Source of the DNA: Scenedesmus sp. PABB004
Lineage: Eukaryota
Length of the DNA stretch: 64,000 nt
Direction of reading: 5' to 3'
Assembly (NCBI GenBank): GCA_014905635.1
Contig: JABVCE010000038.1
Location: forward strand, 62,001 to 126,000
The position numbers and the translations under genes are program-made. Shown here piece after piece: positions 14,604 through 50,583 of this stretch. Under the pieces are notes generated by a model. The model was not told the DNA's origin. It ran no database searches and saw nothing but the letters and a program-made list of their open reading frames with translations. Position 1 is the first letter of the stretch. Every line of letters starts with the position of its first letter.

Positions 14604-15015
14604 GGCGGCGGCGTGACCGGTGGGGCGGGGGTGCGGCCAAAGGTGGCGCGCGAGCGCGCGGCGGCCCGCTTTGGCAGCAGCAGCGAGAAGACCTGCGGGC
14701 GCGCGCGCCGGCGCGCGGGCGGCGGCGGCGCTGGCGGCCGCGTGGCGGCTGCGTCGTGGTACCTCCCGGTACCTCCCCTCCTCGCAAGCACCGCACCACG
14801 TAACCAAGCACCCGGCGCAGCTCCGCACGCAACCCCGGTCGCGGCGCTTCGCTCTCTTGCACACCCAGCTCCTTCACCGGCCCCCTGCCAGCCACGTCTC
14901 CACAGCTTCGGCCGGGCTCCCGAGCGCGCGGACGGGGCTGCGGCGCAGCAGCGCGGCCCCGGAGCGCCGCCGCGGGCTGCCGGAGCTCGCGCGGCCGCCT
15001 TGACCGGCCGGCGCC

Positions 15016-18000
15016 ATGTCAAAGCAGGCGCGCCCCGGCGCGCCGGGCCAGCCCGGGCGGGCTTCGACGCTCTCGGAGCCGCTGAGCCACAAGTCGGTAG
15101 TGGAGAAGCAGCGGTGCGCGCGCGCGCGCGCCGCCCGCTGCTCCGGCGCCCCCTTGCTCCGCCGCCGGCCGCCGACCGCTCGCGGCGCGCGCGGAGTCTC
15201 CCACCCGGCCCCCCAGGGCGGCCATCAGCAAGCTGCGGGAGCAGAACGCGCGGTTGAAGGAGGAGCTGCTGCTGGAGAACAAGTTCAGCGTGCGCCCGAG
15301 CAACCCGGGCGCCGCGGCGCTCATCAACAAGCTGCAGGACGAGGCCGACCTCTTCACACGCAAGGTGGGCGGCGGCTCCAGCCGGGGCAGGGTCCGCGGC
15401 GCGACCGACGCGCGACCGACGCCACCCCGGCACGCCGCGCGCGCTGCGGCCGCCGCGGCGCGCGCCGCCCCCCATCATCGCCCGCGCCCCCACGCCGCGC
15501 GCCCGCGCCCCGCAGATCCAGCTGGAGCGGCGCAAGGTGCTGATGCTGCAGCAGCAGCTCGAGGCGGCGTCGGGGCAGCTCGGCGCGAGCCGCACCGCGA
15601 TGGGCGGCATCTTCAGCGCGCGCGAGCAGGCGACCGCGGCGGCAAAGCAGATCACGATCCTGGAGAACCGGCTCGAGAAGCAGTTTGTCAAATACAACGA
15701 GGTGCGGCGGCCCACCGCCTGGTCAGGGCCTGGTCAGGGCCAGGGCCGCGGCGCGGCGCGGCGTGTCAGCACGTGGACCCGCCGCCGCTGGCTCACGTCC
15801 GGCGCGCGCGCCCCGCGCGCGCGCGCGCGCGGCACGCGCAGGCCATCACGCACAACAAGCAGCTGCAGGAGCAGATCGACAACCTGCGGCGCGAGCGCCT
15901 CATGTTTGAGGCCATCGACGCTAGCCTGGACAAGGAGCTCGCACGCATCAAGCGCACCATCGCGGGTCAGCGCCGGCTGCCGGCGCGGCGCGGCGCGGGA
16001 GCCGGCGCCGGCAGCAGCCGCCGGCCGCGGCGGCCTCACGCGCGCCGCGCCACCGCGCCGCGCCGCGCCGCGCCGCGCCCAGACACCATCACCGCCGCCA
16101 ACGAGGCGCACGTGGGCAAGGACAAGGCGCTCGCCGAGGTCGCGGCGCTGAAGCTGGCGGCGGAGAAGGAGCACGCGGCGTTCGAGGAGGAGTGGCGCCA
16201 GCTGTCGCACATCATCGAGGACGACCGGTGCGTCGGCTGACCCGCCCCGCGCGGCGCGGCCGGGCGGCTGCTGGCGCGCGCGCGTCGCCGACGGCCGCCG
16301 CCGCCGCCGCCGCTGGCCGCAGGCGCGGGCGCGAGGCGGCGCGGCAGATGGAGATGGCCGAGCGCGAACGTCGCACGCAGGAGCTGCTCAAGAGCTGCGA
16401 GGCGCGCGCGGCAGCCGCCGGGCGCGCGGGGCGCGGTCGGGCCCGCCGCTTGCACGGCGCGCCGCCGACGCGCTGCGCGGCGCCCGCCCGCCCGCACGCG
16501 CGCGCGCAGGCAAGCGCGGCGGGGCGCAAGAAGGCGGTGCGCGGCAGCTGGGCGGTCGGCATGAGCAAGGTGCTCGCGCAGGACGTGAGCCACGAGAAGG
16601 TCCGCCTCTTCGGCGAGGCGTTTGCCAAGATCCAGGACGCCACGGGTGAGCGCCGACGCGTCGGCGACGCCCGCAGCACTGGGTTTGCCGCCGCCGGGCC
16701 GCGCCGCACCACACTCCGCGAGTCCACGCTCCACCACACCGCCCCGCGCCGCCGCGCCCCGCTGCTGTTGCCGGCAGGCATCCAGGACATCGACGCGCTC
16801 GTGGCGGCGTTTGGGTCGGGCGAGGACGCCAACTACACGCTCTTTGCCTACGTCAACGAGGCACGCCGGGGCCAGGGTTTAGGGTTTAGGGTCTAGGGTA
16901 TAGGGTCTAGGACCCCACCTCGCGCGCCGCGCCGCGCTGCGCTCCAGCGCGCGGCCTCGCGGGCACGTGCGGCGGAGGCGTGCGGGCTGGCCGCCGCTCA
17001 CGGCGGCCCGCGCCGCCGGTCGCAGGTCAACGCGGAGGTGGAGGCGCTAGAGGACAACATTGGGCGCGTGCGCCAGGAGATTGAGGCCGCGCAGGCGCAG
17101 GTGCGGCGCCGCGCGCAGCGACGCCGGCAGCCGCGAGGGACGTGCGCGCGCGCGCGCGGGCGCGCGCAGGTCGTCGCCGAGCGCGGCGCGCGCCCCGGCC
17201 GCCGCCGCCGCCGCGCAGGCGCGCGCGAGCGAGGCGGCCGCGAGCGCGGCCGCGGGCAGCAGCCTCGCGCGCGGCGCGGCGGCGGAGGCCAAGGCCGCCG
17301 CGTACGAGCGCCGCCTCGGCGCCGCCGCGGGCGTGGTGGAGCAGCTCAAGGGCGGCGTGGGCGCGCTCTTTGACGTGGCGGTGCGGCCTGCGCGCGGCGC
17401 GCGTGGCGCCGCTGCAGCGGCCCTGGCGGCACGCCGCCGCGCGTGGGGTCAACGCCTGACTGACCCGCGGCGCGCGTGCAGGGCTGCAACACCAACACCG
17501 TGCGCGAGCTGCTGGGCGACGCGCTGACCGACGCCAACGTGCTGGCGCACCTGGGCATCGTCGAGCAGCGCAGCAACGAGCTGCTGCAGGCGCGCGCGGC
17601 GGCGGGCGGGCCTCGGACCGCCGCCTTGGACCGCGCGTGCGCGGATCCGCCCGCCCGCCCGCCCCGGCGCAGGCGTACGCGCTCAGCAAGCCTGGCAACG
17701 CGGCGCTGCAGGAGCTGCTGCATGCACCGCCGGCCGCGCCGGCGCCGTCGCACCGCATCGCGGTGGACCCGCCGTCCACGCTGGAGCCGAGCGCCGCCGC
17801 GGCGCCCGGCCCCGGCGGCGCCGCCGCCGCGCCGGGCCTGGGCGGCAACGGGGGCCTCGCCGCGCTGCTGGACCAGGGCGACGCGGCGGGCGGGGAGGAG
17901 GCGCTGCCCGACGACGTGCCGCTCACGCGCAGCCAGCTGCAGGCCAAGGTGCGGGGTGCGGCGCGGGGTGCTGCGACAGCTGGAGGCCCACTTCGCCTCC

Positions 18001-26700: not shown

Positions 26701-29700
26701 GCCTCCGCCTCGGCCGCGGCGTCGAGCAGCGGCGCGCGCGCGTCGGCGGCGGGGCTGCCGCGCTGCGCCGCCCAGTCGGGCGCGGAGCCGGCCGCGCCGT
26801 CGCCGTCGCCGGCGGCGCGGCGCGGCGCGGGGCGCGCCCGCGCCGCCGCCGCGGCGCCCCGCGCGGCGATCTCCGCCTCCTTGGCCGCGGCGGCCGCGTC
26901 GGCGGCGGCGTCCCAGGACGCCGCGGGCGGCGTGTGGTGGTGCGCGATGGCGCCCGTGTTGGCGACCGTGGGGAAGAGGTTGCGCACCTCCTGCTGCATC
27001 GCGGGGGACGCCTCGGCCAGGAGCTTGGCGTTCTCCTCGTAAAACGTGTCCTGCGAGCGTTTAAGGGGGGGGGGGGTGCACGGGGGCACAGAGTCACGGG
27101 CAGGGACGGGCGGCGGCCGGGCCGGAGGCGGGGGCACGCGCGCGGGGGTGGGGGCGGGTCGGCGCCGCGCGCGCGGCGGGGGCGGAGGCGGTGCGGCGCC
27201 GCCGCGGCTCGCGGTTGGCGGCGGCGCGCGGTGACGCCTCGCTGCCGCTCACAAGCCGCGGCGGCGCCGCCCGCCCTCAACCCCGGCCCCGGCCCCGCGG
27301 CGGCGCGCGCCTGCGTCTCCAGCACCATCTCGCGCGGGCCGTCGAGCAGCGCTCCCGCGCGCGTGCCCTCGAGCTCGCCGACCAGCTTGTCAGCGAGCAC
27401 CGCGGTCGGGGCCTTGCCGTACGGCGGGTCGATGTCGGTGAGCTGGGCGGGTTTAGGGAGGGTTGTGCAGGGTCGTGCGGGGTTCAGGGTTCGGGCCGGG
27501 GGCTCGGGCGGGTCAGCACTCGCGCCGCGCCGCGGGTCAGCCGCAGGTCAGCACTCGCGCCGCGGGTCAGCACTCGCGCCGCGGGTTTCGGGGTTGGGGG
27601 CGAGGGTGGGGCGAGGCGTGTGGCCGGGGCGGCGGCGCGCGCGGGCGGCCCGCGGGCTCGGTGCTGCGCTATACATATCTCGGCGCTGTGTACCTGCCAG
27701 CCGTCATCAATGATCAGGAGGTGGGGGTGCAGCCCGCCCGCCTGCAGGCTCGACAGGCCCTCCACGAGGCCGCGCGCGCTCACGGTCGAATAGAAGGCGT
27801 CCCAGGTGCACCTGCGACCCCGTGTGCGCGCGTGTGTGTGTAAGTGTGTGTGTGAGCGTGCGTGCGCGCGTGTGTGAGTGTGGAGGGGGGGGGCGGGGGG
27901 GGTGGCGGCGCGCGGTGTGGTGCGCGGCGCGACACACGGCGTGCGCACCAGCCGAAGCCGTCGAGGCTCGCCGGCAGCGCCTTGGCGGCGCGCGGCGCCG
28001 CGCCGCCGGAGAGCGCGGCGCCCGCGGCGACGCCGGCGTCGACGAGGTGGAACGGGTCGGTGCCGACGGCGAGCAGCAGCACGCCTGCGGCCGCGCGCGC
28101 GCGCGCGCGCGGTCGGGCGCCGGGGCGCCACAGGCCGGGGCGGCGGCGCCGGCGGCGCGGCGCCGGCGGCGGCGGCAGCGGGGCTCACTGTCGCACGACT
28201 CGCCCAGCTTGGAGTCGTCGCCGCTCTCGACGCGCATGACGACCTGCCCCGCGCGGTCGGCGCCCCAGGCCCTGCGCCGCGCGGCGCGGCGCGCGGTGGT
28301 TTAGCAAGCGAGACCCTGCTGCGTGGAGAACATGCCCCCCAGCACACGACTCGACAAAATCAACGGCAACGGCACGCGGCGGCGGCGCACGCGGCATCAG
28401 CAGCGGCGGCGAGCGAGCGCGTGCGCCGAGCCCCTGCCGCTGCGGCGCCAGGCCGATCGCGCCGCGCGCATCCCGGGACGACACGGGGGCAGCCTAGGGG
28501 CCCCTTGCCGCCCCCCCAGCGGGCGCGGGGCGGCCCGAGAGGATGCAGGGCCTCCCGGACGGCGGATCCGCGGCCAAGCGGCCACGCCTGGCCCCGCTCT
28601 CGCCGGCGGGCGGCATGGGCCACGCGCAGGGGTGAGCGCGGGGCCGCCAACCGCGCGCAGCGCGGCCCCAGGGCGCGAGGCAGCAGCCAACCGCAACACC
28701 ACGCACGCAGGCGAGACGGCCCCGACGACCTGGTGGCCTACATGGCCTCCCGCGGCGGCAGGGTGCGCGACGGCGCACCGCGCGGCCGCCGCGCCACGCC
28801 GCGGCGGGCAGCAGCGGCAGCAGCGCACACGCGTGCCACGCCAACCACGCGCCGCCACGCCGCCAACGCGCCACACCACAGATCCAGGAGCTCGAGGACG
28901 AGCTGGCGGCGCTGTGCGGCGCGCACGCGGCGGCGGCCGCGGCGGCCGAGGCGCGCGAGGGCGAGGTCGCGTCGCTGCGCGCGCAGCTGACCACCTGGCG
29001 CGCGGTCAAGGACGCCGAGGCAGCCAGCCTGAACAGCAGCAACGCGCAGCTCGCGGAGCAGCTGACGCGGGAGATCGCCCGCGCGCGCACGCTCGAGGGC
29101 CAGCTCGCGCGAGCGCAGGCCGACGGGGTGCGCGGCGCCCGCGCCGTGATGCACTTGTGCTCGACTAACTCTGGCGCCAGCACACACCAACGCCGCCGCA
29201 CCCCGCCCCCGACCGCGGCGCAGGGCCGGAGCAAGCTCGAGGCGGAGCAGCTGCGGGCGCAGCTGGCAGACGCGCTGGCGGGCGCCGCGGCGGCGGGCTC
29301 GTCCGCCGAGGGCAGCGTGCGGGAGCTCGGCCAGCAGCTCGCCGCGTGCCAGCGCGACGCGGACGAGGCGCGCCGCGCGGCGGCGCAGGCGGCCGCGCTG
29401 CAGGCGGAGCGGCTGCAAGCGGAACAGGACGCGCACGCGGTCGCGGCGCGGCAGCTGGCCGACGCGAAGCAGCAGCTCACGGCCGCGCTCGCGCGCGCCG
29501 CCGAGGCCGACGCGGCGGCGGCAGACGCGCAGGGGCGCGCGATCAAGGCGGAGATGCAGGCGGCGACCATGGCGAGCAGCGACGGCCAGGTGCTGCTGAA
29601 GACGCTGCAGGAGCAGCTCCGCGCGCAGGGCGAGGCGCTCGCGGCGGCGCGCGCGGGCGCGGCGCAGGCGGCTGCGCTGCCGGGCCTGCAGGCGGGGCTC

Positions 29701-34157: not shown

Positions 34158-37100
34158 ATGAGCCCCCTAGGCTCCTGGGGCCGGGCGGCGCCCGGCTGCG
34201 CCGCGCCGCACCACCACGCCGGCGCGGGCGGCGGGAGCTACAGCATCCGCCGCGCGTTTGATGGCGCGACCGTGTTCATCACCGGCGCGTCCGGCTACAT
34301 CGGCAGCGTCGTGCTGGAGCAGCTGCTGCGCACCACGGGCGTCGCGACGGTGTACCTGCTGCTGCGGCCGCGCCGCGGCGAGGCCATCCAGGCGCGCGCC
34401 GACAAGCTGCTGCAGGGCGCGCTCTTCCACAAGGTACCACCGGCGCCGCGCTGCCGCTTGCATCGCACGCGCCGAGGCCGCCGCGCCGCACCTGCCGCCG
34501 GCCGCTGCGCGCCGCTCACGCGGCCCCGCGGCGCGCGCGCCGCGCAGGTGCGCGACTCGCCCAAGCTGCTGTCCAAGGTGCGCGTCATGGGCGGTGACAT
34601 CTCGGCGCCCGGGCTCGGCCTGAGCGCGGCCGACCGGTCCACGCTGCTGGGGTGCGTGGACTTCATCATCCACTGCGCCGCCGACATACGGCTCGAGGCG
34701 GACATCCAGGTGCGTTACGTTGCGCCCCAGGGGCCTGGGCTTGACGGCCCTAAACCCTGAGCCTCAGGGTTCAGGGCTGAGACCGCCTGCCCGGCGGGCC
34801 GGTGCTGCTCCCCCGTGCTGCTGGTCCCGCGGCGGCTGAGCTTACGCTTACGAAATCCACCGGCGGCGGCGCCCCCTCAGGAGACGCTGACCGCCAACTT
34901 TGAGGGCACGCGCACCGTGCTCGAGCTCGCCGCGGCGGCGGGGCACCTCAAGGCGCTCGTCCACGTCAGCAGCGCGTTTGTCAACATGAACCAGCCCCGC
35001 AGCAGCATCATCGACGAGCAGGCGCGGCGCGCAGCGCGCGCAGCGCGGCCGCCCAGCGTGATGTGCGGCGCAACGTTTGGCGCGCGGGGCTCACGCGGCG
35101 CGCCGCGCCCCCCCCCCCCTTCCCGCTGTCGCCGCCCGCAGGTCTACCCGCTGCGCTATGGCAACCAGGTGGCGGACGTGGAGGAGCTCGCGCGGGTGCG
35201 CGCACCGCCGGCTGTGCTCTGCCTGCGCGGGCTGCAAGCGCGCGCGCGCGCGCGCGGGGTTCCCACCAGCCGTCACGCGCCGCCGCCGCCGCCGCCGGCG
35301 GCCGGCCGCGCGCAGGAGCTGCTGTCGATGCCGAGCCGCGACGCCAACCGGCGCGCGGCCGCGCTGCTCGAGCGCTGGGCGTTCCCCAACACCTACACCA
35401 TGGGCAAGCACATGTCGGAGCAGCTCGTCACGCGCTACCAGGCGCGCCTGCAGCTGCCCGTCGCGATCGTGCGCCCGAGCCTCGTCTGCGCGCTCGCGGG
35501 CGAGCCCTACCCCGGCTACGTGGGCAACTGGGCGGGTGCGGCGCGCGCGCGCGCGCGCGCGCGCGCTCGCGGGGACCGCGCGGCGCCGGGCGGGCGGCGC
35601 CGCCGCGCCGCGTCGCGGCCGGCCGGCGGCGCTCACGCCCGCGCCCACGCGCCCGCGGCCGCGGCGCAGGCCCGATCGGCGCGGGCGCGGCGATGGCGAT
35701 CGGGCTGTTTGACTGCCTGCAGAGCGTGGCGAGCCAGCCGATGGGCGTGTGGGACGTCGTGCCGGCCGATCTGGTCGCGAGCTCGATCATTGCCTCTGCC
35801 GCGGCCGTCGCGGCGGGCGTCGGCGCGGCGATCAGCCGCGTGACGCGGTCCGGCGGCATCGTCGGCTCGGCGTCCGACGCGGCGGTCGTGCTCGGCACGC
35901 CGCACCAGTTCAGCCCCGCCGCGGCCGCGGCGCGGCTCGCGCAGGGCGAGGCCGCCGCGGCCGCGGCGCGCGCCGGCGGCCGGGCGTTTGCGGGGCACGA
36001 CGTCGCGGCGACGATCAAGGTGGCGGACGAGCTCGCCGGCGGCGCCGGCGGCGACGCGGCCGGCGCCAAGCCCGGGCCGGGCAAGCCGCCCGCCGCGGGG
36101 CGCGCGCGCTCGGACGACACCGCGATGCCGCCCGGCGGCCGGCACGGCAGCCTCGCCGACCTCGCGGGCATGGCCCCGGCCAGCGACGGCGCGAGCGACG
36201 CGTGCAGCACGCCGAGCGCGGGCGGCAGCCCGCAGCTGCGCGCCGGCCGCGGCGGCGGCGGGCGGGGCGTCGCGCTGACCGCGTCGCTGCTCGAGCGCGT
36301 GGGCCGGGGCGGCGGCGGCAGCGAGGAGTGCATGCACTCCATCGACGAGCTCGCGCTGTCCGAGGCCACGGCCGGCGAGGAGACGGGGGGCCTGCCGCTG
36401 CTCATCGTGCACGCCGCGACGAGCAGCACCTACCCGCTCACGTGCGCAGCGGGGCTTGGGCGGGCGCGCGGGGCCTGGGTTCAGGGTTCAGGGGCGTGGG
36501 CCCTCTTGCGGCACACGCGCGCCGGCCGCCGCCGACCCGGTGCGTCGCCGCCGCCGCCCCGTCGCCGCCCCTCCCAGGCTGATGGAGGGCTGGAACTACA
36601 ACTTGGACTTCTTTGACGCCCACCCCCAGCCCTTCAGGTGCGATAAGGGCGACGGCGGCCTCCGCGCGCGCGCGCGCGCGTGCCTGAAATGCGAGCGCAG
36701 CGCGCGCGCCGCGCGGCGCAGCCGGCTGAGCCGCGCGCGCGCGTGCGCGCGCCGCAGGATCACGCTGGGCGCGCTGCCGCCGATGCCGCCGAGCTTTGTG
36801 CCGAGCGAGGCCGCCGTGCTCGCGTGCCGGCGGCGGATCTGGTGGAAGGTCTGGGCGATCGCGGGCCTGCTGCGCCTCGCGGGGCGCGAGCGCGAGGCCA
36901 AGAAGCTGGTCGTCGGCTACGAGGCCTTCTGCGTGCACAACAACTCCAAGACCGACCGCGACCTCGTGTTCTCAACGCACGCGCTCGTCGCGCTCGAGGC
37001 CGCGCTCGCCCCCGACGAGTCCCCCGCCTACCTGCTCGTCTGGCGGCCCATGCAGCGCCCCGGCGCCAGCGCCGGCGCCGGCGCGGGCGCGGGCGCCGCC

Positions 37101-38368: not shown

Positions 38369-39356
38369 ATGCTCCTGCGCACGCCGCCGCTGCCGCCGCG
38401 CGGCGCCGCCGCTGCCGCGCCCGCCCGGGCGCCAGCGGGGCTGCATGCACTCCGCGCGGTGGCGCGACCTGCGCCCAGACCCAGCGCGACGCGCGTGAGC
38501 TCGCGGGTACAGCGCTGCGTGGCGCGGCTGGGCGAGGAGCAGTCGGGCCGCGCTCTCGGGCATGCCCCCGGCCGCGTGGCGCGGAGGCGCGCCGGCGCGG
38601 CGCGCAGCACGCTGTTTCCGGACCCCATACCCTCTGGTGAGCCTCCAGTGGCGCGTCTGCGCCGTTCCCTGCCGCCGGCACCTTCCGGGGCGCGCCGCCG
38701 CCAGGTGCAGAGCGCCGAGCCCGCCGCCGGCCGCCGCCGCCCGCGCGCAGACGTGAAGCTGGAGGTCGACCAGGATCCGGGCGCCAAGGAGGTCACGTAT
38801 GACGAGGAGGCCAAGGCGGTGCGCATCCCGCTCGCCGCAGTGAACGACGGCTCGCGCCGCACCAAGCTGGTGATGTTCACATGCAACAAGTGCGGTGCGT
38901 GTGCCGGCGTGCACGCGGGCGGGCGGGCCGGCGCGCGGGCGGGGCGTCGCCCCGGTGCTGCAAGGGCAGCCGGCGGCGCCGGTGCGGGCGCGCGCGCGCC
39001 TCACGCTGCCCGCGCGCGCCGGCCGCGCAGGGGGGCGCACGGCGCGGCTCGTCAACCCCGTCGCGTGGGAGAAGGGCGCGGTGTTCTGCCAGTGCCAGCA
39101 CTGCGGCGTGTGGCACACGCTCGCGGCGCACCCGAGCATCATCGAGGAGGTTCGGTACAACGACCCAGGCTGGTCGCTCGAGCGGCAGGGCAAGGACGCG
39201 ACGGCAGCGGCTGCTGCCGCGGCGGCAGCGGCGTCGGCGGCGCCTGCGGCGGCGGCCGCCGACTCGGGCGCGTCGAGCGGCACGGCGCTGGGCGCCAGCA
39301 GCGGCAGCGACGACGGCGGGCAGGAGGCGAGCTCGGCGCCGCCGGCGGGCAGCTGA
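38369..39356 (+). CDS. zf-DNL (Zim17/HEP-like) zinc-ribbon protein, probably organelle-targeted
   Basis: MFTCNKCG.RT.RLVNPVAWEKGAVFCQCQHCGVWH, preceded by an Ala/Arg-rich transit-like N-terminus. Confidence 0.8.
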
Positions 39357-39747
39357 CGCGGGGCACGGTGCGGGCTCGTGAGCCCCCGGCGCGACGCGGC
39401 GCTGCGACACGCACCCCGCGCCGCGCGGCAGTGCGTGTGACTGGCCGGCCTCCTCCCTGGCCGGTCGCCGCGCGCTCATGAGCGCGCGGGCGTGATCACG
39501 CCCGCGAGCCGCTCGGTTACCCTGCAGGCGGGCAGCTGCCTGCCCGCCGCCGATCACGAGGGGGCGCCACCGCGCCGCCGAAAGTCTCGCCGGCGGGCTC
39601 GCTGGCCAGCAGGGCCGCCGTTCCGCTGAGCAGGCCCGCGGTGCGTCCCGGCGGCCGGGGCGCGTGTGTGCACGCGCCCGCCCGGGAAAAGAAAGCAGGC
39701 GATAAAAAGTCAAATGCGCCAGCCGGATCGCTCGCGCACCGCCACGC

Positions 39748-42700
39748 TCACCGTGGCGCCGCCGCCGCCGCGGCGCCGCGCTGCTTGTCGGCCTGCTCCT
39801 GCAGCGCGAGCACCGCGCCGGGGTCGTGCGCCTTGGCGTGGGCGATGAGGTACTCCAGGCTCTGCATCTCCGTCAGCCGGCTGATCGCGCGGTCCTTGGC
39901 AAAGCCGAGCTGGTCGTCCACGACCACCTCACCGCTGCTCGAGGCCCCAGACGCGCCAGGCAAGCGCGCGCCGGCGCGGCGCGCGGCGGCGGCGCCCGCC
40001 TGCGTCTCGATGCGCTCGAAGAGCTCAAACGGCGTGCCCTCGGCGGAGAGGAGCAGCCGCACGCTGGCGCGCGCGGGCGGGGGGGGGGGGAGGGGGCGGG
40101 CGGGCGGGCGCGCGCGCGGGGCGGCGTGGGCGAGCGCCGCGCCGCCGGCCGACCCTGCCGAGCGTGCGCCCGCCCGGCCCTGCCGCGCGCGCCCCGCGCA
40201 CCAGCGAGCCCCGCGCGCCCCTCCAGCCCCGCCCCGACAGCCCTGGTAGGTCCCGCCCGGACAGGGGCCCTGGCCCCGCAAGCCGGCGCGCTGCGGCTCA
40301 CCGGTGCTCGTACAGGACGTCGATGAGGGTGACAAAGCGGTACGCCGCGGCGCGGTTGGCCCCGACAAAGCGCGGCACGTCGGACAGCGCGAGCGTGCTG
40401 AACGCGCCCGCGAGCGCGATGTAGTCGGCCGCAGCGAGCGGGCGGTCGCAGAGCTCGGCAAAGTCAAACATCGCGGCCGGGCCTGCGGCGCAGCGCGCGG
40501 CGGTGCGTGCGCGCGCGCGAGCGGGCGCGGGCGGGTGTGGGCGCGGATGGGAGGAGGGCGCAACGCCGCGCTCCGGGCGGCACCACGGCGCGGCGCGGCA
40601 CCACGCGCCCGCAACGCTCGGCGCGGCGCGGCGCACCGAGCGCCTGCGGCACGTGCAGCGTGCGGCCCATCGCGACGTCGAGGTCGACCGGCCCGGGGTT
40701 GCCGAGCGCGGGAGGCGCCCCCGCGGCGGCGCCGCCGCGCCCGGCGCCGGCGCCGCCCTGCTCGCCGCACGCGAGGAATGCGGCGTGCAGGCGGGCGGTG
40801 CGGTCGGGGGTGAGGAAGTACATGCCAGCCGCGTGGTGCGCGAGGCGGCGGTAGTCGACGGGCGAGGCCATGTCGTGCACCACGCACGCCTCCTGCCGTG
40901 CGTGCGCGCGCGGCGGCGCGCGGGGGCGGGGCGGGCGCGTGAGGCCGGGCAGGAGGGGCTGCCCCCGCTGTCAAGACAGCCCCTGGGCTCGCCCTGAGCC
41001 CTGCGCCCCGCCGCCCCGCCGCCCAGTGCGCTGCCGCCCCGCCGCTCTGCGCCCCCTGAGCCCTAAACCCTGTGCCGCCGCGCCCGCCGAGCCCTAAACC
41101 CTGCGCCCCCTGAGCCCTAAACCCTGCGCCCCAACCCGCCGCGCCTTGAGCCGCGCGATGAAGGGCAGGAAGAGCGGGCGCTGCAGGCCGCCCTCGTAGA
41201 GCGAGTCGGGCGCGCGGTTGCTCGTCGCGACGAGCACGAGGCCGTCGTCCCAGAGGCGGCCAAAGAGGCGGTGCAGGATCGCCGCGTCGGCGACGTCCGT
41301 CACAAAGAGCTCGTCGAGCGCGAGGACCTGCGGGCGGTGAGCGGGCGGGGCGGGCGCGTGGCGTGGGCGGGCGGCGCGGGCGGCGTGGGCGGCCGGCGCG
41401 GGCGGCGCGGGCGGCAGGGGAGGGCGGGGCGGGCGGCCGCGGCGCGCGCGGCGCGCGGCGCGCCTTGACGCCGGCGGCGACGTCGTCGGCGACGCGGCGC
41501 AGCGGGTCGGCCTCGCCGCGCGTGCGCGCGAGCCTGGCGTGGATGTCGAGCATGAAGTCGTGGAAGTGCGTGCGCGTGACCTGGCAGGTGGTTTTTGAAT
41601 TTGAATTTGAAGTTTGGTTTGAACGGACGGGCGGCGGTTTGAACAGGGTTGGACAACGAGGCGCGGGCACGGTCGGCCCGCGCGCGGCGCACGGCGGCGA
41701 GCGCGCGCGGCGGCGGCGCGCCTGGAACTCCTTTGGCGCCGCCGCGACGAGGAGGTCCATGAGCATCGTCTTGCCGCACCCCACGCCGCCATACATGTAC
41801 AGCCCGCGCGCCGGCGCGCGCCGCACGCCGCCGCCGCCGGGGCCGGCCGCCGCGGCGGCGCCGTGCAGGCCCGCCTGGGCCTTGATGAGGCCGGAGATGC
41901 CATCAAACCTGGCGGGAGGGGGTGGGAGGGGAGAGCAGGGGCGGGCGGGCGGCGGCGCGGGAGGGGTTGATGGCAGGAGGCGTCGTCGCCAGGGGCGGTG
42001 ACGGCGGGGCCGAGAGACGGCGGCGCGGGGCGGCCAGGGAGCGCGACCGAGCGCGGCGGGGGAAAGCGCCGCGCGGCGGCGTCCTCGGGAGCCGCGGCCG
42101 CGAGTTACACGCGCCGCCTGGCCGCCCGCGTGTTGCAGCGGGGCGCGCCGGCGGCGCGGCAGCGGGTCGGGGCGCGCGAGGCGCGCGGCGCAGCGGGCGG
42201 CGCCTCGCAGTCGGCCGCGAAGCCACGCCCGGCTGGTGCGGGCGGCCCAGCCACCGCCCGGCCGCCTGCTGCAGGCCTTGATGCACCCGTGCTGCTGCCG
42301 TGCCGGCGGCTAGCGGCCCCCGCGGTGGATTTCGGTCAGCGGGCGGTCGGGGCCGGCGTCCTTGGAGCCAGAGTTGATGTACGCGCCCCGCATGCTCGTG
42401 TGCGCGGGAAGCGTTTTGTTGGCGTCCACCTGGCGCGCCGCGGGGGAAGCGTTCGGCCGGCGGCGGCGCGTGTGCGGCTGGCGGCGCGCGGCGCTGCTGC
42501 CGGGCGCGCGGCGGCGCGCTCGTGCGTGCCGGCGGGCTGCGACCGGGCGCGTGCGACGTAGAGCATGCTGGAGGCGCCCACGCACCCGCGAGGTGGGGGA
42601 GAGGAACATGTAGGCGACGGGGCCGAGGCCGATTGCGGCGATGCCGAACAGGAAGCACGCCGCCAGCGGCCCGTTGCGCACGTGCGTGCGCGGGCCCGGC

Positions 42701-45700
42701 GGCATGCTGCACAGGGCCTGCGACCGGCCGGCGCTGCTGCTTCGGGGAGCTGCAAGGCGAGGAGCGAGCGCTGCCGCCGCTGCTGCTGTCGCTGCTGCCG
42801 CCAGTCGCGGTGCCGGGTGCACCCACGCGCCAGGGACGGTCCAGAGAGGTTTGCTGCTTGACGCCGGCCAGCCAGGGCGTGCACCCGCTGCCGCATGACG
42901 CCCCGACCGCCCGCCCGGGCGCCGGGTGACGCGCAGGCCGCACGAGACGGGGCCGCACGCGCCCCAATTACCCGCCCGACTGCCGGCCCCCAGGCCCCAG
43001 CCCCCAACCCACAGCCCCCCAACCGTGTCGGCAGGCTGCCTCGCCTGGTGAGGCGGCGGACGTGCACGACCACGTCTGCCGCTTCCACCGGACAAGGGGG
43101 GCCTGCTGACACGGCCGCGGCCGCCGGCGCGCCTGCTCCTGCAGGCGCGCGGCGACCGCCGCTGCCGCTGCTGCTGCTGCTGGCGCCGCCGCCCGCGGCT
43201 GCGTCAGCTGACGAACAGCGCCTCGCCAAAGTTGCGCGCGATGATGATGCCGGCGGCAAAGACGGCAAACGCGCGCAGCACCTGCGGGCCGGGCCAGGAG
43301 CGCGATCAGGCGGCGGCCGCTGCTGCCGTTCGCCGCGCGGCGCGGCGGAGAGCTCGCTGCCGCTGACGGCCGCGCGCGTGCGGCCTCCCGGCGCCCGGGC
43401 GGCGGCGTGGGCACCTTGCAGTTGGCCTCAAACTTGGCGGGGTGCGAGTACTCGTCGAAGATGTCGTCCTTCAGCTTCTCCCACTGCCAGCTGCTGCGCG
43501 AGCCCGGGTTGGGCGCGGGCAGCGCCTTGGGAGCCATGACTCGCCTGCCGGCTGCACTGAGCGCGGGGCGGCAGCGGCTGTGTGCGCGCGGGCCGATGCG
43601 GGCGCCGGGGGGCCGCTGCGGGAGGTGACGAGCGGGTCCGGAGGAGCGGCGGCGGGGAGCGGTGGAGCCGGCCAGCGGCCGCAGGGGCAGGCACTCGAGC
43701 TGCCGAGCCGCGTCGCGACGACGCCGCGCTTCTGCTGCTGCCGCCGCCGCGCTTCTGCTGCTGCCGCCGCCAGACGCAAAGAGGACGAGCGCCCATGCCC
43801 GCCCGCCCACTCCCGGCCAAGACAGTCCCCGCTTCAACGCGATCGCAGCACTCACACGCAGAGCGCCCGCCGCGACCGCCGCTGCCCCCTGCCTCACTCT
43901 AGCGCACGCGCAGCGGCGCCGCGCCCGCCGCGCCCGCCGCCCGCTGGCAGGCATGGCGGCGCCGCCGCCGCCCGCCGGCGCGCCCGCCGGCGGCGGCCCG
44001 GCGGCGCGGAGCGAGAAGGAGAAGATGCTTGCGGGCGAGCTGTACTACGCGTTTGACGACACGCTGCTGTCCGAGCGCCAGGCGGCCAAGGCGCTGATCC
44101 ACACCTACAACACGACCCTCGCCACGCGCATCGAGGGCCGCACCGAGCTGCTGAAGCAGGCGCGCGCGCGCGCGGGCTGTCCGCGTGGCGGCCGGCGCCA
44201 AGCCCGCGCCGCCCGCGGTGGCGGCGGCGACCGGCGGCGAAACTGAAACCGCCCCGACCCCGCCGTCCGCGCAGCTGCTGGGCGGCCTGGACGAGGCCGA
44301 CCCGCCGTTCATTGAGCCGCCCTTCTATTGCGACTATGGCTACAACATACACATCGGTGCGGCGCCAGCGCCGGCGGCCTTTGGCCTCCCGCCCCGCGGC
44401 GGCGGCGGCCGCGCAGCCCCCGCGGCGGCGGCGGCGGCGCGTGTGCGGAGCGCGGCCGCGCCCAGGCCCCCGGCGCGCGCCGGCGCCGCCGGTGCCGCCG
44501 CAGGCGCGGGGAGCTACATGAACTTTGGGGCGACGATCCTCGACGGCTGCCGCGTGACGATCGGCGCGCGCGTGCTGTTTGGGCCCAACGTCCAGGTCTA
44601 CGCCGCGACGCACCCGATCGAGGGCCACGTGCGGCAGGGCATCCGCGGCCCCGAGTGCGCGCCGCGCCGCGGCCGGCGGCCGGCGCGCTGCGGGCGGCGC
44701 GCGCCCTGCCGCGCCGCGCCGCGCCGCACCGCGCCCGGCGCCGCGCCACGCCCTGCCGCTGACAAGGCCCGGCCACCCGCCCGCCCGCCACGCCCGCCCG
44801 CCCCCCGGCCGCGGCGCAGGTACTCCAAGCCCATCACGATCGGCGACGACGTGTGGGTCGGCGGCGCGGTCGTGATCTGCCCCGGCGTCACGATCGGCGC
44901 GCACGCCGTCGTCGGCGCGGGCTCGGTCGTGACGCGCGACGTGAAGCCGTGGACCGTCGTCGCCGGCAACCCGGCGCGCCTCATCCGGCGGATCGAGCGC
45001 CCGGACGGCAACGACGGCGACGCCGCCGCAGTGGTGCTGAACTGACGGCGCTTGCGGGACGGGCCACCACCATAAACCAAACAATAAGCGCAACGCAAAG
45101 CACGCACAACAACAACAATGTAACCCGAAGGGCCGGCGCGCCCGCCGCGCGCACCACGACTGCTTGCTCTGCTTCACGGCGCCCACGTTGTCCACCAGCG
45201 TCAGCCCGCTCGGCTTGCTCGGCGGCGGGTTGGCGCTGCGCAGGCTCGTGAAGAGCTCCTGCGGCGCGGCGCTCGGCGCGGCGGCGTGAGCTGCCGCCGG
45301 GGCAGCCGCGCACGCGCGCACGTCGCTGCCGAGCAGCGCGCGCCCCACCCGCCCCACCCGGCGCACCTGCAGCTTCTGCACGGTGACCTGCTGCAGCGGG
45401 TCGGGGCGGTAAGTGCCGGACGCGATGCCCGCGGCGTACAGCGCGGCGGGGCCCTCCGTCGCGGCCGCGAGCTCCGGCGGCAGCGCCGCCGCCGCCGCCG
45501 CGCCGCCCGCCGCCGGTGCGGCGCCGCCGGCGTGCAGGCGCCGCCGCGCCGCGGCGCCGCCTGCGGCCGCCGCGCGTGCGGGCGGGCGGTTGCGGCGTCA
45601 GCGCGCCGGCGGCGCGCGGCGCGCCCCGGCCGCTGCCGCGGGGCCCATCACGCCCCGGGCCCCCCGCTGGCCGCGCCCGGCGCGCGCCGCGGCCGCCGCG

Positions 45701-45890
45701 GGCGCCGGCGGCGGCGCGGCAGCGGCGGCAGCGGGTGTGCAGCGGCGCGCGCCGCGGCCGCCGCCCGCTGCGGCGCGCCGGCGGGGGCCGCACCTGGCCA
45801 CGCCTGCTGGCTGGGCCAGCAGCCCGCCCGCTGCGCCTGCAGCGCGCGGAGGAGCAGCCCGGCGCCGCGCGGCGCCCGGCCGCCCGCCAT
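39748..45890 (-). CDS. AFG1/ZapE-like ATPase (mitochondrial) with a 3.25 kb intron
   Basis: Exons 45794-45890, 45367-45560 and 45155-45258 encode a presequence and GPAALYAAGIASGTYRPDPLQQ. From 41908 down: GLYMYGGVGCGKT, RTHFHDFM, LALDELFVTDVADA, ATSNRAPDSLYEGGLQR, DYR, YRFVTLIDVLYE and FAKDRAISRLTEMQS. Confidence 0.9.
42105..42109 (-). terminator. TGTAA poly(A) signal for the nested minus-strand gene(s)
   Basis: ttaca on the plus strand, ~200 nt after the stop at 42310. Confidence 0.6.
42310..42705 (-). CDS. Small (~79 aa) single-TM protein of unknown function, two exons, nested in the AFG1 intron
   Basis: Exons 42586-42705 and 42310-42429 with a phase-0 GT-AG intron give MPPGPRTHVRNGPLAACFLFGIAAIGLGPVAYMFLSPTSR|VDANKTLPAHTSMRGAYINSGSKDAGPD...*. 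Confidence 0.72.
   Translation of the reverse strand: MPPGPRTHVRNGPLAACFLFGIAAIGLGPVAYMFLSPTSRVRGRLQHALRRTRPVAARRHARARRRAPGSSAARRQPHTRRRRPNASPAARQVDANKTLPAHTSMRGAYINSGSKDAGPDRPLTEIHRGGR
43204..43537 (-). CDS. TOM5: Plant-type mitochondrial import receptor subunit TOM5, nested in the AFG1 intron
   Basis: Exons 43415-43537 and 43204-43281 give EKLKDDIFDEYSHPAKFEANCK|VLRAFAVFAAGIIIARNFGEALFVS*. This resembles the recalled plant TOM5 pattern EKMK...N.KLLRA..FAGG...R.YG. Confidence 0.8.
43538..43952. promoter_or_regulatory. Putative bidirectional promoter between TOM5 and the O-acetyltransferase, inside the AFG1 intron
   Basis: Head-to-head ATGs separated by 415 bp. Confidence 0.5.
43953..45045 (+). 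CDS. Maltose/galactoside O-acetyltransferase (Mac domain plus hexapeptide repeats), nested antisense in the AFG1 intron
   Basis: SEKEKMLAGELY, IEPPFYCDYGYNIHIG, LFGPNVQVYAATHP and PITIGDDVWVGGAVVICPGVTIG...VVAGNPAR. Confidence 0.93.
45119..45123 (+). terminator. TGTAA poly(A) signal of the O-acetyltransferase
   Basis: Lies 74 nt after the stop in an A/C-rich 3' UTR. Confidence 0.7.
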
Positions 45891-46240
45891 CGCTGCCGCC
45901 GCCGCTGCCGCTCCGGCCGGGCGCGGTCGCGCTGCCCGGCCGCGCCGAGTGCCGGGCCAGCTGGTCTCGAGGAGGCGTCGGGCTCAGCGCGCCCGCAGCG
46001 ACGACGCGGCAGCAGCGGCAGCAGCAGCAGCAGCAGGCCGAAAACCCCCGGGACGGCGCTGAGTCGCGTGTGTGCTGGGATGTGCGCGTGGTCAGCGAGC
46101 GCGTGGAGGCTCCTGCTTCGTCGCGTGCTGGCAGCAGTGCCGGTCCAGCTCCCCGAGCTTGCAGTCGCTTTCAGGAGCCGCTCGCGCGCCCCGCCGGCAC
46201 CTTTTCGTCCACCCCGCGCCACACAGCAACTCACGCCGCC

Positions 46241-49200
46241 ATGAGCGTCGCCAGCATGCAGGCCAAGGTGCCCGCGCCGGCGCGCGGCGCCCTCCGCGAG
46301 CCCGCGGCGGCGCCGGGGCGCCGCATTCTGATCCCCCCGCGCCGCCCCCGCGAGCGCAGGGCCTGAGCAAGAGCGGGGTGGCGGTCGGCCGCGGCCCGCG
46401 GCGCAGCAGGCTGGTGCGTGGGGCATGGCCGGCGCGGGCGATGGGCCTGGAAGCTTCGGAGCGCTCACGCATTGGCCCGCCCGCAGGTGGTGGCCGCCAG
46501 CGACGCAAAGGAGATCGTTTTCGACAGCGACAGCCGCCGCCGGCTGCAGAGGGGCATCAACAAGGTCGCGGACGCCGTCTCGGTCACGCTGGGTCCCCGC
46601 GGTGCGCGCCGGGCGCCCCCCGCGCCGCCCGCGCCCGCCCAGGGGACGCGCTGAGCCGGCCGCCGCGCCCCGCAGGCCGCAACGTGGTGCTGGAGCAGAA
46701 GTTTGGCGTGCCGCAGGTGCGGACGCGCGCAGCGGCGGCGCTGCTGCCGGCGGCCGCCGCCCGCGCCGGCGCGGCCGGGCCCGCGCGGCGCGGCGCGGCG
46801 GTCGCGACGCGCGGGGGGCGCCCCGGCCGCTGTCCTCGCGGCCCGCGGCGCGGGCAGGCTGCGGCGGCAGGCCGCCGGCGGCGCGCAGCTGCTGCTGTGG
46901 TGGCGGCTGCCGCATGCGCATGCACGCGCAGCGCTCGAGCCCGCCGCGCTCACGCCGTCCCCGCGCCCGCGCGCAGGTCATCAACGATGGCGTGTCCATC
47001 GCGCGCGCGATCGAGCTGGCCGACCCGGTGGAGAACGCCGGCGCGCAGCTCATCAAGGAGGTGCGGCCGGCCGCGCGCTGGCGGCAGCCGGGGCGAGCCG
47101 GGCGAGCCGCGGGCGAGCCGCGGGCGAGCCGCGGGCGAGCCGGGGGAGCAGCGGCAGCGGTGGCAGCGGCAGCAGCGGCGGCGGCGGCGGCTGGCGGCGG
47201 CCTGCCCGCCTGCAGCACCGACACGCCCCGCGCCGCCCGCGCGCCCCCTCCCGCAGGTGGCCGGCCGCACCAACGACAGCGCCGGCGACGGCACCACCAC
47301 CGCGAGCGTGCTGGCGCGTGAGATGATCCACTTTGGCCTGCAGGTGCGTGCGCCAGCGGCCGCGCGCGCGCCGCCGGCTGGCGGCGGCGGCGCTGGGGGC
47401 TGGGAGGCGCCGCCGCGCGGGCAGCGGCCGGCGCGGTCGCAGCAGGCGGCAGCGCTAGCAGCGCCGGCGGACGGCTCACGCCGCCGCCGCCGCCGCGGCC
47501 GTCGCGCGTGTGTGGCGCAGGTCGTGACGGCGGGCGCCAACCCCATCGCGGTGAAGAAGGGCATCGACAAGACCCAGGAGTACCTGGTCGGCAAGCTGCG
47601 CGAGAACGCCAAGCCCGTCAACGGCCGCCAGGACATCCGGGTGCGCCGCGCGCCGCACGCTCTCCCTCTATCTCTCTCTCACGCGCGCGCGCGCCGCCGC
47701 CGCCGGCGCCCGGCCGTCGCGCACGCACCACAGTGCGCGCGCACGCAGCGCGCGTGCGCGACGCGCCCGCGCGCCGCCGTGCCCTGCTCACGTGCCGCCG
47801 CCGCCGCCGCCGCGCGGGACGTCCGCCGCACACACACCACCGCCAGAACATCGCGTCCATCTCTGCCGGCAACGACGACAGCGTGGGCGACATGATCGCC
47901 GACGCGCTGGACAAGGTCGGCAGCAACGGCGTGCTGTCGATCGAGTCGTCCAACTCGATCGAGACCTTTGTCGAGGTGAGAGGGAGGGAGGGAGAGGCAG
48001 AGGGAGGGAGAGGGAGAGGGAGAGGGCAGGGAGGGGCGGGCAGGGGAGGCGCATCGTCCGCGGCGAGCGGGCGCGCAGGCCCGCCGCGCTGCCCGCTGCG
48101 CCGCCCCTCGCCGCGCGTCCTGCGCGCCCGCCAAGCACACGCCGCGCGCCCTGCGCCCCCCTCAACCCCAGGTGACTGAGGGCATGGAGATTGACCGCGG
48201 CTACATCTCGCCCCAGTTTGTGACCAACAGCGAGCGGCTGCTGGTTGAGTATGATGGCGCGCGCGTGCTGGTGACGGACCAGAAGATCGAGAGCGTGCGC
48301 GACATCGTGCCCATCCTGGAGCAGGTGCGGGGCGCTGGGCGGTGTGGGCGGTGTGTGTGTGGGTGTGTGTGGAGAGGGGGGGGGGGGGCGGCTTGGCTGG
48401 CGGCGCAGCAGCTGCGGCGAGGCTGGCGCCGACGGCGCGCGCCCGCGCGCCGTGCGGCGCAGGTCACGCGCCTCAACGCGCCGCTGCTGATCATCGCCGA
48501 GGACGTCACGGGTGCGGCGGCGGCGCGCGGCGCCGCCTCGCCCCGCCCCGCCTCGCCCTGCCCCCCCCCCCCCCCCCCGCCGCGCTTCTTCTCTGACCGC
48601 GTCCGCGGCCGCGCCGCGCCGCCTCCGCCCTCCGCCCGGCGTCCGCCCGCGCGCGCGTCCCAGGCGAGGCGCTGGCGACGCTCGTGGTGAACAAGCTGCG
48701 CGGCATCCTCAACGTCGTGGCCATCAAGGCGCCCGGCTTTGGCGAGCGCCGCAAGGCGCTGCTGCAGGACATCGCCATCGTCACGGGCGCGGAGTTTATC
48801 GCCAAGGACCTCGGCATGAAGGTGGGCGGGCGATCGGGGTTTAGAGGGCGGCCGCGGGGTTCAGCGGGGCAGGGGGTCAGGGGGGCGGCGGCGCCGCGGG
48901 CGGTGGGGAGGGGCGGGGGACCTCGAGAGGGCGGCCGTGGGACACTGCAGCCGCGCGCGCCGACGCACGCCGACACTCGCCCGTGCCGCGTCCGCCGGGG
49001 CCGCGTGCCCGCAGGTCGACGCGACCGTGGTGGAGCAGCTCGGTGTCGCGCGCAAGGTCGCGGTCGCGAGCACGAGCACCACGCTCATCGCCGACGCGGC
49101 GAGCAAGGACGAGATTGACATGCGCATCGCGCAGCTCAAGAAGGAGCTGGCAGAGACCGACAGCGTCTACGACACCGGTGCGAGAGGGGGGGGGGGTGTT

Positions 49201-50583
49201 GGCGGGCGGGCGGCCTGCGGGGCGCGGCCGGGCGGGGCGCTCAGGCGGCCGGTCAGGAGGGTGTGGCTGCCGCCGGCGCGCGCGGCGCGGCGGGGTGCCC
49301 CGCCGCCGCTCGCCGCCGCCCGCGCGCGCCCGCCGCGGACGCTGCCGCTGAACGCTGCCGCCGGGCGCTGCCGCGCAGAGAAGCTGAGCGAGCGCATTGC
49401 CAAGCTCTCTGGCGGCGTCGCGGTCATCAAGGTCGGCGCCGCGACCGAGGCGGAGCTGGAGGACCGCAAGCTGCGCATTGAGGACGCGAAGAACGCGACC
49501 TTTGCCGCCGTGGAGGAGGTGCGCGGACGGGCGTGTGCGTGTGGGCGTGCGTGTGTGGGTGTGTGGGGAGGGAGGGGGAGCAGCGGAGGGAGGGCGGGCG
49601 GCGGAGGGAGGGCGGGCGGGGACGGCGGGCGTGGGGCGGCGCCGACGGCGGCGGCCGCCGCCCGCTCGCGCCCACACCGTCGCCGTCGCCGCCGCGCGCG
49701 CGATGCGCGCAGGGCATCGTGCCCGGCGGCGGCGCGGCGCTGCTGCACCTGAGCGAGCTCGTGCCCGCGTTCAAGGACACCCTGTCCGACCCGGAGGAGA
49801 AGCTGGGCGCGGAGATCGTGATGAAGGCGCTGCGCGCGCCGGCGCGCATCATCGCCGAGAACGCGGGTGCGGCGGCGCGCGGCGGCGGCCGCGCCGCGCG
49901 GGCGGGGCGCGCCGCGCGCCGCACGCCACCGCCCACGCCCACGCGCGCGCGTGACACGCGCCGCCGCGCGCCGCCGCCGCCGCTGCCGCGCGCGCATGAC
50001 GCCAGGCGTGGAGGGCGAGGTGATCATCCAGAAGGTCCTGGGCCAGCCCTTCACGCACGGCTACAACGCGATGTCCGACAAGGTCTGCGACCTGCTGGAG
50101 CAGGTGCGCGCGGTTGTGGCGGGGAGAGCGGCGGCGGCGGCGGCGGCGCCGGAAGGCCGCGCGCCGGGGGGCCGCCGGGGCGGCGGGGCGGGCTGGCGCG
50201 GGGCTGGCGCGGCGCGGCGAGCGCCGCGGCCGCCTCTTGACGCGCGCCCCTCCCCGCCTGCCGCCGGCGGCACGCGCAGGGCGTGATCGACCCCGCCAAG
50301 GTCACGCGCAACGGGCTTATGAACGCCTGCAGCATCGCCGGCATCATGCTCACCACGCAGGTGCGGCTGGTTGCGCTGCGCGGTCGCTGCCGCGGGCCGG
50401 GCCGGCCGGGGCCGGGGGCTGCGCGCTGGGCTGGCGAGAGCCTGGCGGGCTGCGCGCTGCGGCCGACCCCGCGGCGGCCGCCGCCGGCCGTCGCCGCCGC
50501 AGGCGGTCATGGTCGAGAAGTTCAAGGCCGAGGCGCCCGGCGGCATGGGCGCCGGCGGCATGCCCGCGGGCATGACGCTGTGA
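46241..50583 (+). CDS. CPN60A: Plastid chaperonin 60 alpha subunit
   Basis: Transit peptide, then [68 protein letters not shown] and [27 protein letters not shown], ending PAGMTL*. About 17 exons. Confidence 0.95.

Follow-up and report, generated by a model that had tools for sequence, protein, structure and literature searches.

The window analysed here, a stretch of 64,000 nucleotides (nt) from Scenedesmus sp. PABB004 (contig JABVCE010000038.1, positions 62,001 to 126,000 of the forward strand), carries on its minus strand a gene predicted to encode an AFG1/LACE1-type AAA ATPase, whose third intron accommodates three further genes: a TOM5-like gene, a gene for a small membrane protein (SP) and, in antisense orientation, an O-acetyltransferase-like gene. 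The nine-exon AFG1 model extends from 45890 to 39748 (start codon ATG at 45890, stop codon TGA at 39748-39750), and its coding sequence of 1,635 nt is open throughout and corresponds to 544 amino acids (aa). The features are listed below in the order of the host gene; GC3 denotes the G+C content at third codon positions.

45890-45794, minus strand: AFG1 exon 1, Arg/Ala-rich putative presequence; a modelled exon (GC3 0.97) without homology, its boundaries the least certain
45560-45367, minus strand: AFG1 exon 2, conserved EGPAALY..G.YRPDPLQQVTVQKLQ motif; BLASTP, N-terminal profile and alignment
45258-45155, minus strand: AFG1 exon 3, ending in ...SGLTLVDNVGAVKQSKQS and the TG of a Trp codon; donor TG/GTGCGC
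41909-45154, minus strand: AFG1 intron 3, 3,246 nt, phase 2, three genes inside
45119-45123, plus strand: TGTAA, 74 nt past the acetyltransferase stop and 32 nt from the AFG1 exon 3 donor
43953-44159, 44275-44356, 44504-44654 and 44820-45045, plus strand: O-acetyltransferase-like gene (maltose/galactoside), four exons, 221 aa, antisense to the host
43538-43952, no strand: divergent intergenic stretch of 415 nt that separates the start codons of TOM5 and the acetyltransferase, presumably a shared promoter
43537-43415 and 43281-43204, minus strand: TOM5-like gene, two exons, 66 aa, ending in ...ARNFGEALFVS
42705-42586 and 42429-42310, minus strand: SP gene, two exons, 79 aa, predicted single-pass membrane protein with the motif RGAYINSGSKDAGPD
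42105-42109, minus strand: TGTAA, 201 nt past the SP stop and 196 nt ahead of the exon 4 acceptor
41909-41990, minus strand: intron 3 acceptor with its C-rich pyrimidine tract, ...CCCTCCCGCCAG/, read directly
41908-41722, minus strand: AFG1 exon 4, which opens with the last base (G) of the Trp codon, goes on with FDGISGLIK... and holds the Walker A motif GGVGCGKT; Pfam AFG1_ATPase 3e-08
41580-41464, 41327-41145, 40892-40637, 40482-40302 and 40063-39748 including the stop, minus strand: AFG1 exons 5-9; Pfam (exons 5 and 6) and identity to residues of the public protein P0002

At the joint between exons 3 and 4, TG ahead of the donor GTGCGC and G behind the acceptor (...CCCGCCAG) form a Trp codon, after which FDGIS continues; this TG/G joint, proposed in the original prediction, can be read directly and agrees with the orthologue P0020; all the coordinates of that prediction hold. 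The exon with the P-loop begins at the acceptor and, as had been noticed, lacks a usable ATG: in the minus-strand frame no in-frame ATG lies between the SP stop (42310) and the start of exon 4, and the first one within the exon stands just ahead of the Walker A motif.

The missing N-terminus had been assigned to exons at 45155-45890, and homology now places it there for exons 2 and 3, while exon 1 has no homologue. Exon 2 matches the transcript-derived orthologue P0020 (BLASTP, 30/48 identities, E 3e-16), and exon 3 the Raphidocelis protein P0006 (22/33 identities, E 9e-11). A profile of the pre-P-loop region of 14 orthologues, made with the window excluded and searched from stop to stop against all six frames of the 64 kb, matches only 45525-45367 (3.5e-14) and 45261-45154 (2.5e-06), the next best match having an E of 0.96. 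The alignment of the spliced protein to AFG1 orthologues that had been suggested as a check gives an end-to-end match with 12 of them (MAFFT), joint included: the model fits the EGP..Y..G.YR.DP.Q..T..LQ ... SGLT.VD ... W block and reaches the P-loop with no gap between exons 3 and 4 (SKQSW/FDGIS versus SSW/FDGIS in P0020). The region encoded by exons 2 and 3 is present in all 12 aligned orthologues. Exon 1 is placed by the need for a start codon, by frame and by its GC3 of 0.97; an intron is needed after it because the frame stops near 45650.

The ATPase core is recognized by Pfam in exon 4 (AFG1_ATPase, 3e-08, profile positions 58-88 of 361), exon 5 (7.8e-06) and exon 6 (3.6e-20); exons 2, 3, 7 and 8 taken singly have no Pfam match. 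The annotated protein that holds exons 4-9 matches PF03969 at 2.7e-76, over the 27-bit cut-off. Walker A motifs follow the pattern G..G.GKT and Walker B motifs the pattern hhhhDE; here they correspond to GGVGCGKT in exon 4 and VLALDELFVTD in exon 6. The product thus resembles the AFG1/LACE1/ZapE family (PF03969) in its ATPase core and in the eukaryotic N-terminal Y..G..R.DP.Q...LQ region; the protein is ordinary, and only the structure of its gene is unusual. In all 17 exons of the AFG1, TOM5-like, SP and acetyltransferase genes GC3 reaches 0.85-1.00 and codon positions are ordered GC3 > GC1 > GC2, in a window whose G+C content is 72-82% in each 2-kb bin.

Passenger genes of the third intron

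The TOM5-like protein has eight homologues at E <= 0.001 among nine candidates; they are 54-171 aa long, mostly 64-65, and end in ...ARNFGEALFVS. Precomputed matches to PF27930 (TOM5_2 in the atlas output) are given for seven of the eight, and PF27930.1 is also given for P0002; the Pfam copy used here, which lacks the PF27930 model, returned no match for the TOM5 exons and three homologues. When the eight homologues are combined into a profile, its only matches in the window and in 80 AFG1 loci of other origin (see below) are the two exons (2.8e-18 and 2.4e-14). Atlas feature scores for this protein lie below 0.9, apart from a cluster labelled TOM6p (0.90). A length of about 65 aa and a hydrophobic C-terminal anchor are shared with plant-type TOM5 (PF27930), a family assigned through the precomputed matches rather than scored here; a role in the TOM complex is putative.

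SP starts 498 nt downstream of the TOM5 stop, on the AFG1 strand. A word-based search scored none of four SP candidates, and a full HMMER scan with a four-row alignment found 107 cluster representatives at E <= 1e-3, nine of them at <= 1e-10 and two at <= 1e-30. The family is characterized by one transmembrane stretch followed by ..LP.qa.RGAY(V/I)N.GS.D.GPD; its named members come from Haematococcus, Polytomella and a legume, and all are annotated 'hypothetical'. No Pfam family exceeded the cut-off in 25 of the 107 representatives searched (best COX7C 0.0051 and Coa3_cc 0.01), and a profile search against PDB gave no significant relative, its single match being the complex I subunit NI9M/B9 (E 0.6). 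A profile made from 12 other family members recognizes exon 2 (6e-14) and exon 1 (0.026) of the window and three open reading frames (ORFs) in the other AFG1 loci (7e-22 to 9e-23). SP (proteins P0129-P0235) defines an uncharacterized small-protein family with neither a Pfam family nor a solved relative. Its atlas features lie near those of small mitochondrial single-pass proteins (CEBPZOS-like 0.91, SMIM20 0.90), a resemblance that serves as a lead only. Both the TOM5-like protein and SP match free-standing proteins of 64-124 aa from other algae and plants with the same C-termini. Searches with TOM5 and SP queries in the genome-contig and viral-contig collections found no relative.

The acetyltransferase combines an N-terminal Mac cap with hexapeptide repeats of the left-handed beta-helix type (Pfam Mac 7.9e-15, Hexapep 8.5e-10, Hexapep_2 2.5e-08), and its exons have a GC3 of 0.85-0.97. 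Homology or Pfam matches together with coding periodicity support the genes with which the intron had been credited: TOM5, a small protein and an antisense acetyltransferase, each of them predicted to be spliced. All three are complete and conserved, with a start and a stop of their own, and host exons on both sides of them join in frame.

Other introns of the region, described earlier as mostly about 100-350 bp long, measure 108-252 nt in the 12 cases available (seven of AFG1, 108-252 nt; five of the nested genes, 115-165 nt), and intron 3 is 13-30 times as long as these neighbours. Its borders are free of N and of flanking repeats, direct or inverted, apart from GC-rich low-complexity matches. 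The TGTAA signals reported for the intron are present behind the acetyltransferase and SP stops, and these two are the only ones in 39000-46600. The whole window has 11 copies versus 3.3 expected, a number reached by none of 100 shuffles.

Four of the 13 introns modelled in the locus, AFG1 introns 4, 5 and 6 (41721, 41463 and 41144, minus strand) and acetyltransferase intron 1 (44160, plus strand), are of the GC-AG type and begin AG/GCGCG; a GT alternative would not fit the orthologue alignments. The usual share of GC-AG introns in eukaryotes, about 1%, is far lower. AFG1 intron 6 also contains a 23-31-nt tandem repeat in which three copies of a telomere-like or 'telo-box' motif, GGTTTAGGG, are found. 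The window has seven copies versus 0.06 expected, at 41061-41123 (minus), 16876-16891 (plus), 27450-27458 (plus) and 34748-34756 (minus), and the motif may have a regulatory role or represent an interstitial telomeric repeat. Upstream of the host, a divergent plus-strand ORF without a Pfam match at 1e-05 starts at about 46233, some 340 nt from the AFG1 ATG, which suggests a bidirectional promoter between the two. Pfam analysis of 77 of the 81 neighbouring stop-to-stop ORFs identified exons of NAD_binding_4 (34761-35840, plus strand, 2.8e-18) and Cpn60_TCP1 (49482-50237, plus strand, 2.1e-09), and nothing else.

The same intron in other algae

A metagenome scan with P0002 yielded 181 confirmed AFG1 loci, of which 80 were kept and compared by tblastn with the four spliced products. 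SP is found in three of them (L001, L003 and L005); TOM5 and the acetyltransferase were detected in none. L001 and L003 are two records identical over the 3.5 kb compared, and L005 belongs to another organism (AFG1 identity 89% over 167 columns). All three have the same order on one strand: an AFG1 exon ending '...SGL(T/A)MVDHV.AA.SK.SW', the SP ORF, and an exon leading to GLYM.GGVGCGKT. The intron is bordered by the donor TG/GTAAGT or TG/GTGAGT and the acceptor CAG/G followed by F/L..., and it measures about 1,016 nt in L001 (9443-10458) and about 896 nt in L005 (199-1094). In L001 and L005 SP is an intact single-exon ORF with its own stop on the AFG1 strand. Its core differs between the two by 13 synonymous and 10 non-synonymous changes in 66 codons (ratio of non-synonymous to synonymous rates, dN/dS, about 0.26), unlike the non-coding parts of the intron, which have diverged. 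The synteny comparison that had been called for thus shows that two other high-GC algae (three contigs) carry SP in this very phase-2 intron at the Trp codon, which is a new observation.

The AFG1 sequence of L001 and L005 from exon 4 onwards corresponds to one tblastn segment (residues 1-383 of the C-terminal part), so introns 4-8 are absent there while the SP-bearing intron is kept. This pattern would fit a nested gene that prevents the loss of its intron. The same split Trp codon (TG/G) is found at the intron in L001, L005 and L029; in L029 and L041, of about 50% G+C, the intron is only some 336 nt long and has no SP match, and L010, L015 and L027 have no intron at this position. In a quick maximum likelihood tree of 39 AFG1 rows, L001 and L005 are sister to Raphidocelis, Monoraphidium, two transcriptome rows, Scenedesmus sp. 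NREL 46B-D3 and the window, a set that represents Scenedesmaceae plus Selenastraceae; the grouping of eight rows has a Shimodaira-Hasegawa-like approximate likelihood ratio (SH-aLRT) support of 98.

TOM5 also appears next to AFG1 elsewhere. NREL 46B-D3 has a TOM5 homologue (KAF6261141.1) and AFG1 (KAF6261142.1) under consecutive accessions on one 486,431-bp scaffold, a second new observation and an indirect sign of adjacency. Likewise, the same longest contig is listed for the TOM5 homologue P0123 and the AFG1 fragment P0014 (21,593 bp), and for the TOM5 homologue P0127 and the SP homologue P0132 (3,061 bp).

Public gene models and rival explanations

A 61-aa exon translation from the locus is 100% identical to part of P0002, which is KAF8055927.1, 'Afg1l [Scenedesmus sp. 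PABB004]'. This 531-aa protein reads MAPKAL...NFGEAL, MPPGP...TSMRGA and FDGIS... in succession: TOM5 minus its last three residues, SP cut ahead of its hallmark motif, and AFG1 exons 4-9. It is regarded as an artefactual fusion of TOM5, SP and AFG1 exons 4-9 due to a prediction error, an instance of the expected tendency of gene predictors to fuse such loci. That the fusion is really made, with exons 1-3 being foreign or relics, is exceedingly improbable. It uses GT-AG sites, keeps the frame and employs the same exon 4 acceptor; however, it loses the invariant C-terminus of TOM5 (FVS) and the most conserved block of the SP family, the hallmark motif YINSGSKDAGPD, while homologues of both elsewhere are free-standing small proteins. 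The N-terminal region that 12 of 12 aligned orthologues carry would be absent from it, and its internal SP donor is not found in L001, which has GCC TAC there. The use of SP as an alternative 5' exon of AFG1 was considered and rejected, the in-frame donor of the public model not being conserved in L001. A second AFG1 model, KAF6261142.1 from NREL 46B-D3 (P0035, 393 aa), starts with MHGGVGCGKT and lacks the N-terminus, being cut short at the same exon.

It is very likely that the locus harbours an intact nuclear AFG1/LACE1-type gene whose third intron, an old one of phase 2, carries other genes. Coding capacity, homology, splice-site phase and the conserved arrangement speak for this and uphold the architecture as a whole as originally proposed; the reading further presumes that the introns are indeed spliced, that the passengers have promoters of their own and that AFG1 transcription reads through the SP poly(A) signal. 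Transcription of AFG1 would start in the approximately 340-nt region upstream of 45890 that is shared with the divergent ORF, and the polymerase would pass through the entire 3.2-kb intron, which would be excised between the donor 45155/45154 and the acceptor 41909/41908 to give a 544-aa protein with the normal N-terminus of the family. The TOM5-like gene and the antisense acetyltransferase would start back to back in the 415-nt divergent region, and the acetyltransferase and SP would each be terminated by their own TGTAA.

Several points weigh against this interpretation. Same-strand nested genes and a poly(A) signal 196 nt ahead of the host acceptor, past which AFG1 transcription would have to run, should hinder AFG1 expression; no TGTAA follows the AFG1 or TOM5 stop within 39000-46600, and the 3' ends of these genes are therefore unreadable from sequence. 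Exon 1 and its splice sites, being placed by frame and GC3 alone, are the least certain part of the model. SP is missing from 77 of the 80 AFG1 loci, and in Haematococcus SP and AFG1 are located on separate contigs, so the nesting is lineage-limited. The position of L001 and L005 in the AFG1 tree is weakened by their filling only 33-38% of the kept columns, and the adjacencies deduced from consecutive accessions and equal longest contigs are indirect, read from listings rather than from DNA.

Could the host gene be broken, by an insertion or rearrangement, or the contig misassembled, so that exons 1-3 and 4-9 do not form one functional gene? The exceptional length of the intron (13-30 times that of its 12 neighbours) and the NREL 46B-D3 annotation, which also lacks the N-terminus, would fit; however, all exons are open and show coding periodicity, the conserved residues are kept, and the donor and acceptor phases agree. 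The interrupted arrangement recurs in L001 and L003, which are separate records, and in L005, a different organism; TOM5 and AFG1 are adjacent in NREL 46B-D3; and the borders contain neither a repeat nor N. The assembly consists of 77 contigs with an N50 of 1.3 Mb (PMC12571836). SP in the same intron of other algae and the consecutive accessions of TOM5 and AFG1 make misassembly unlikely, and a broken or misassembled gene is very improbable overall.

A shared primary transcript is also unlikely. SP, and TOM5 in Scenedesmus, would lack promoters of their own. Polyadenylation within the intron, at the TGTAA at 42109, would release them from the AFG1 pre-mRNA or as a TOM5-SP bicistron, in competition with splicing, so that either AFG1 or the small proteins would be made. 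In agreement with this, no TGTAA separates the TOM5 stop from the SP start and a single one lies past SP, a single ATG is present over the 700 nt of spliced RNA from the TOM5 to the SP start codon, and SP has kept its same-strand nesting in three lineages; retention of the intron in L001 and L005 would give a stop right behind the Trp codon. Translation of polycistronic mRNAs is reported for green algae, with the ORFs spaced at medians of 212-260 nt; one conserved bicistron combines a small TOM subunit (TOM9.2-like) with SDHAF3 (PMC7896298). Yet the TOM5-SP gap of 498 nt is about twice these medians. Leaky scanning is made less plausible by the lone ATG in between, near 42895: it is out of frame and overlaps the start of SP. 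The back-to-back starts of TOM5 and the acetyltransferase are what a separate TOM5 promoter would give. The window has only 11 TGTAA in 64 kb, so many genes lack one and its absence says little. A specific form of the same idea, in which the intron is a conserved processing switch with one promoter, the transcript being either spliced for AFG1 or cut at TGTAA for a polycistronic SP (with TOM5), is decidedly unlikely. Were it true, AFG1 output would be tied, either inversely or in proportion, to two small proteins that take part in mitochondrial membrane biogenesis, and the retention of SP on the AFG1 strand in one intron, while neighbouring introns were lost, would be explained.

If the AFG1 gene is intact, as preferred here, SP would have entered its intron in a common ancestor, before this alga split from the L001/L005 lineage, and TOM5 would have been added within the Scenedesmus lineage. 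The acetyltransferase is seen in the AFG1 intron only here among the window and the 80 loci. An algal lineage of about 50% GC has the intron as well, in an empty version. The 'co-regulated mitochondrial biogenesis cassette' proposed earlier is conjectural. AFG1 and TOM5 belong to mitochondrial families; the acetyltransferase, which has no mitochondrial link, does not fit the idea, SP has no assigned function, and SP and AFG1 lie apart, on separate contigs, in Haematococcus.

Nested genes, polycistrony and intron retention

Nested genes are familiar from animals: one intron of human NF1 contains EVI2A, EVI2B and OMG, and Drosophila has many nested genes. The earlier claim that multi-gene nesting is rare was accordingly overstated, since several genes per intron are known in animals. 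The present locus resembles these cases in having complete genes with their own exons, several passengers per host intron and a host predicted to be spliced across them. It differs in that two of the three passengers are on the host strand, whereas those of NF1 are antisense, and in that SP is kept in an orthologous intron across separate algal lineages. A further difference is the very compact host genome (39.8 Mb, 78.5% GC; PMC12571836), in which the other introns of the locus measure 108-252 nt.

Closer to home are the green-algal polycistronic loci (Gallaher et al. 2021, PMC7896298), which likewise comprise small colinear ORFs for mitochondrial membrane biogenesis that predictors mis-model. 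In the present case, the features seen are colinearity, the 498-nt spacing and the single downstream TGTAA, and the TOM5-SP pair sits in another gene's intron; the main text of PMC7896298 uses the word 'nested' 0 times. Among titles and abstracts returned by literature searches for nested genes in Chlamydomonas or green algae, none dealt with nesting in algae. Nested genes as such are a known kind of feature; what is new is the conserved algal case, the corrected public model and the SP family.

For the gene catalogue, KAF8055927.1 should be read as a three-gene chimera whose true N-terminus lies 3.2 kb upstream; KAF6261142.1, from a second Scenedesmus, has probably been truncated for the same reason. 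The PABB004 genome (39.8 Mb, 77 contigs, N50 1.3 Mb, 78.5% GC) has 7,092 annotated genes versus 13,000-17,000 in its relatives (PMC12571836); given so few, fused models may be common there. The SP family, with its 107 cluster representatives and green algae and a legume among the named members, offers in its atlas likeness a testable hint of a link to mitochondria.

For the biology of these algae, the locus is of note in that one intron of a compact genome holds several genes, two of which share the strand of the host; such a case is rare outside animals. If the passengers depend on host transcription, the locus would tie nested genes to algal polycistrony. The conserved position of SP, together with an intron retained where others were lost, may represent a clean natural case of a nested gene locking its intron in place.

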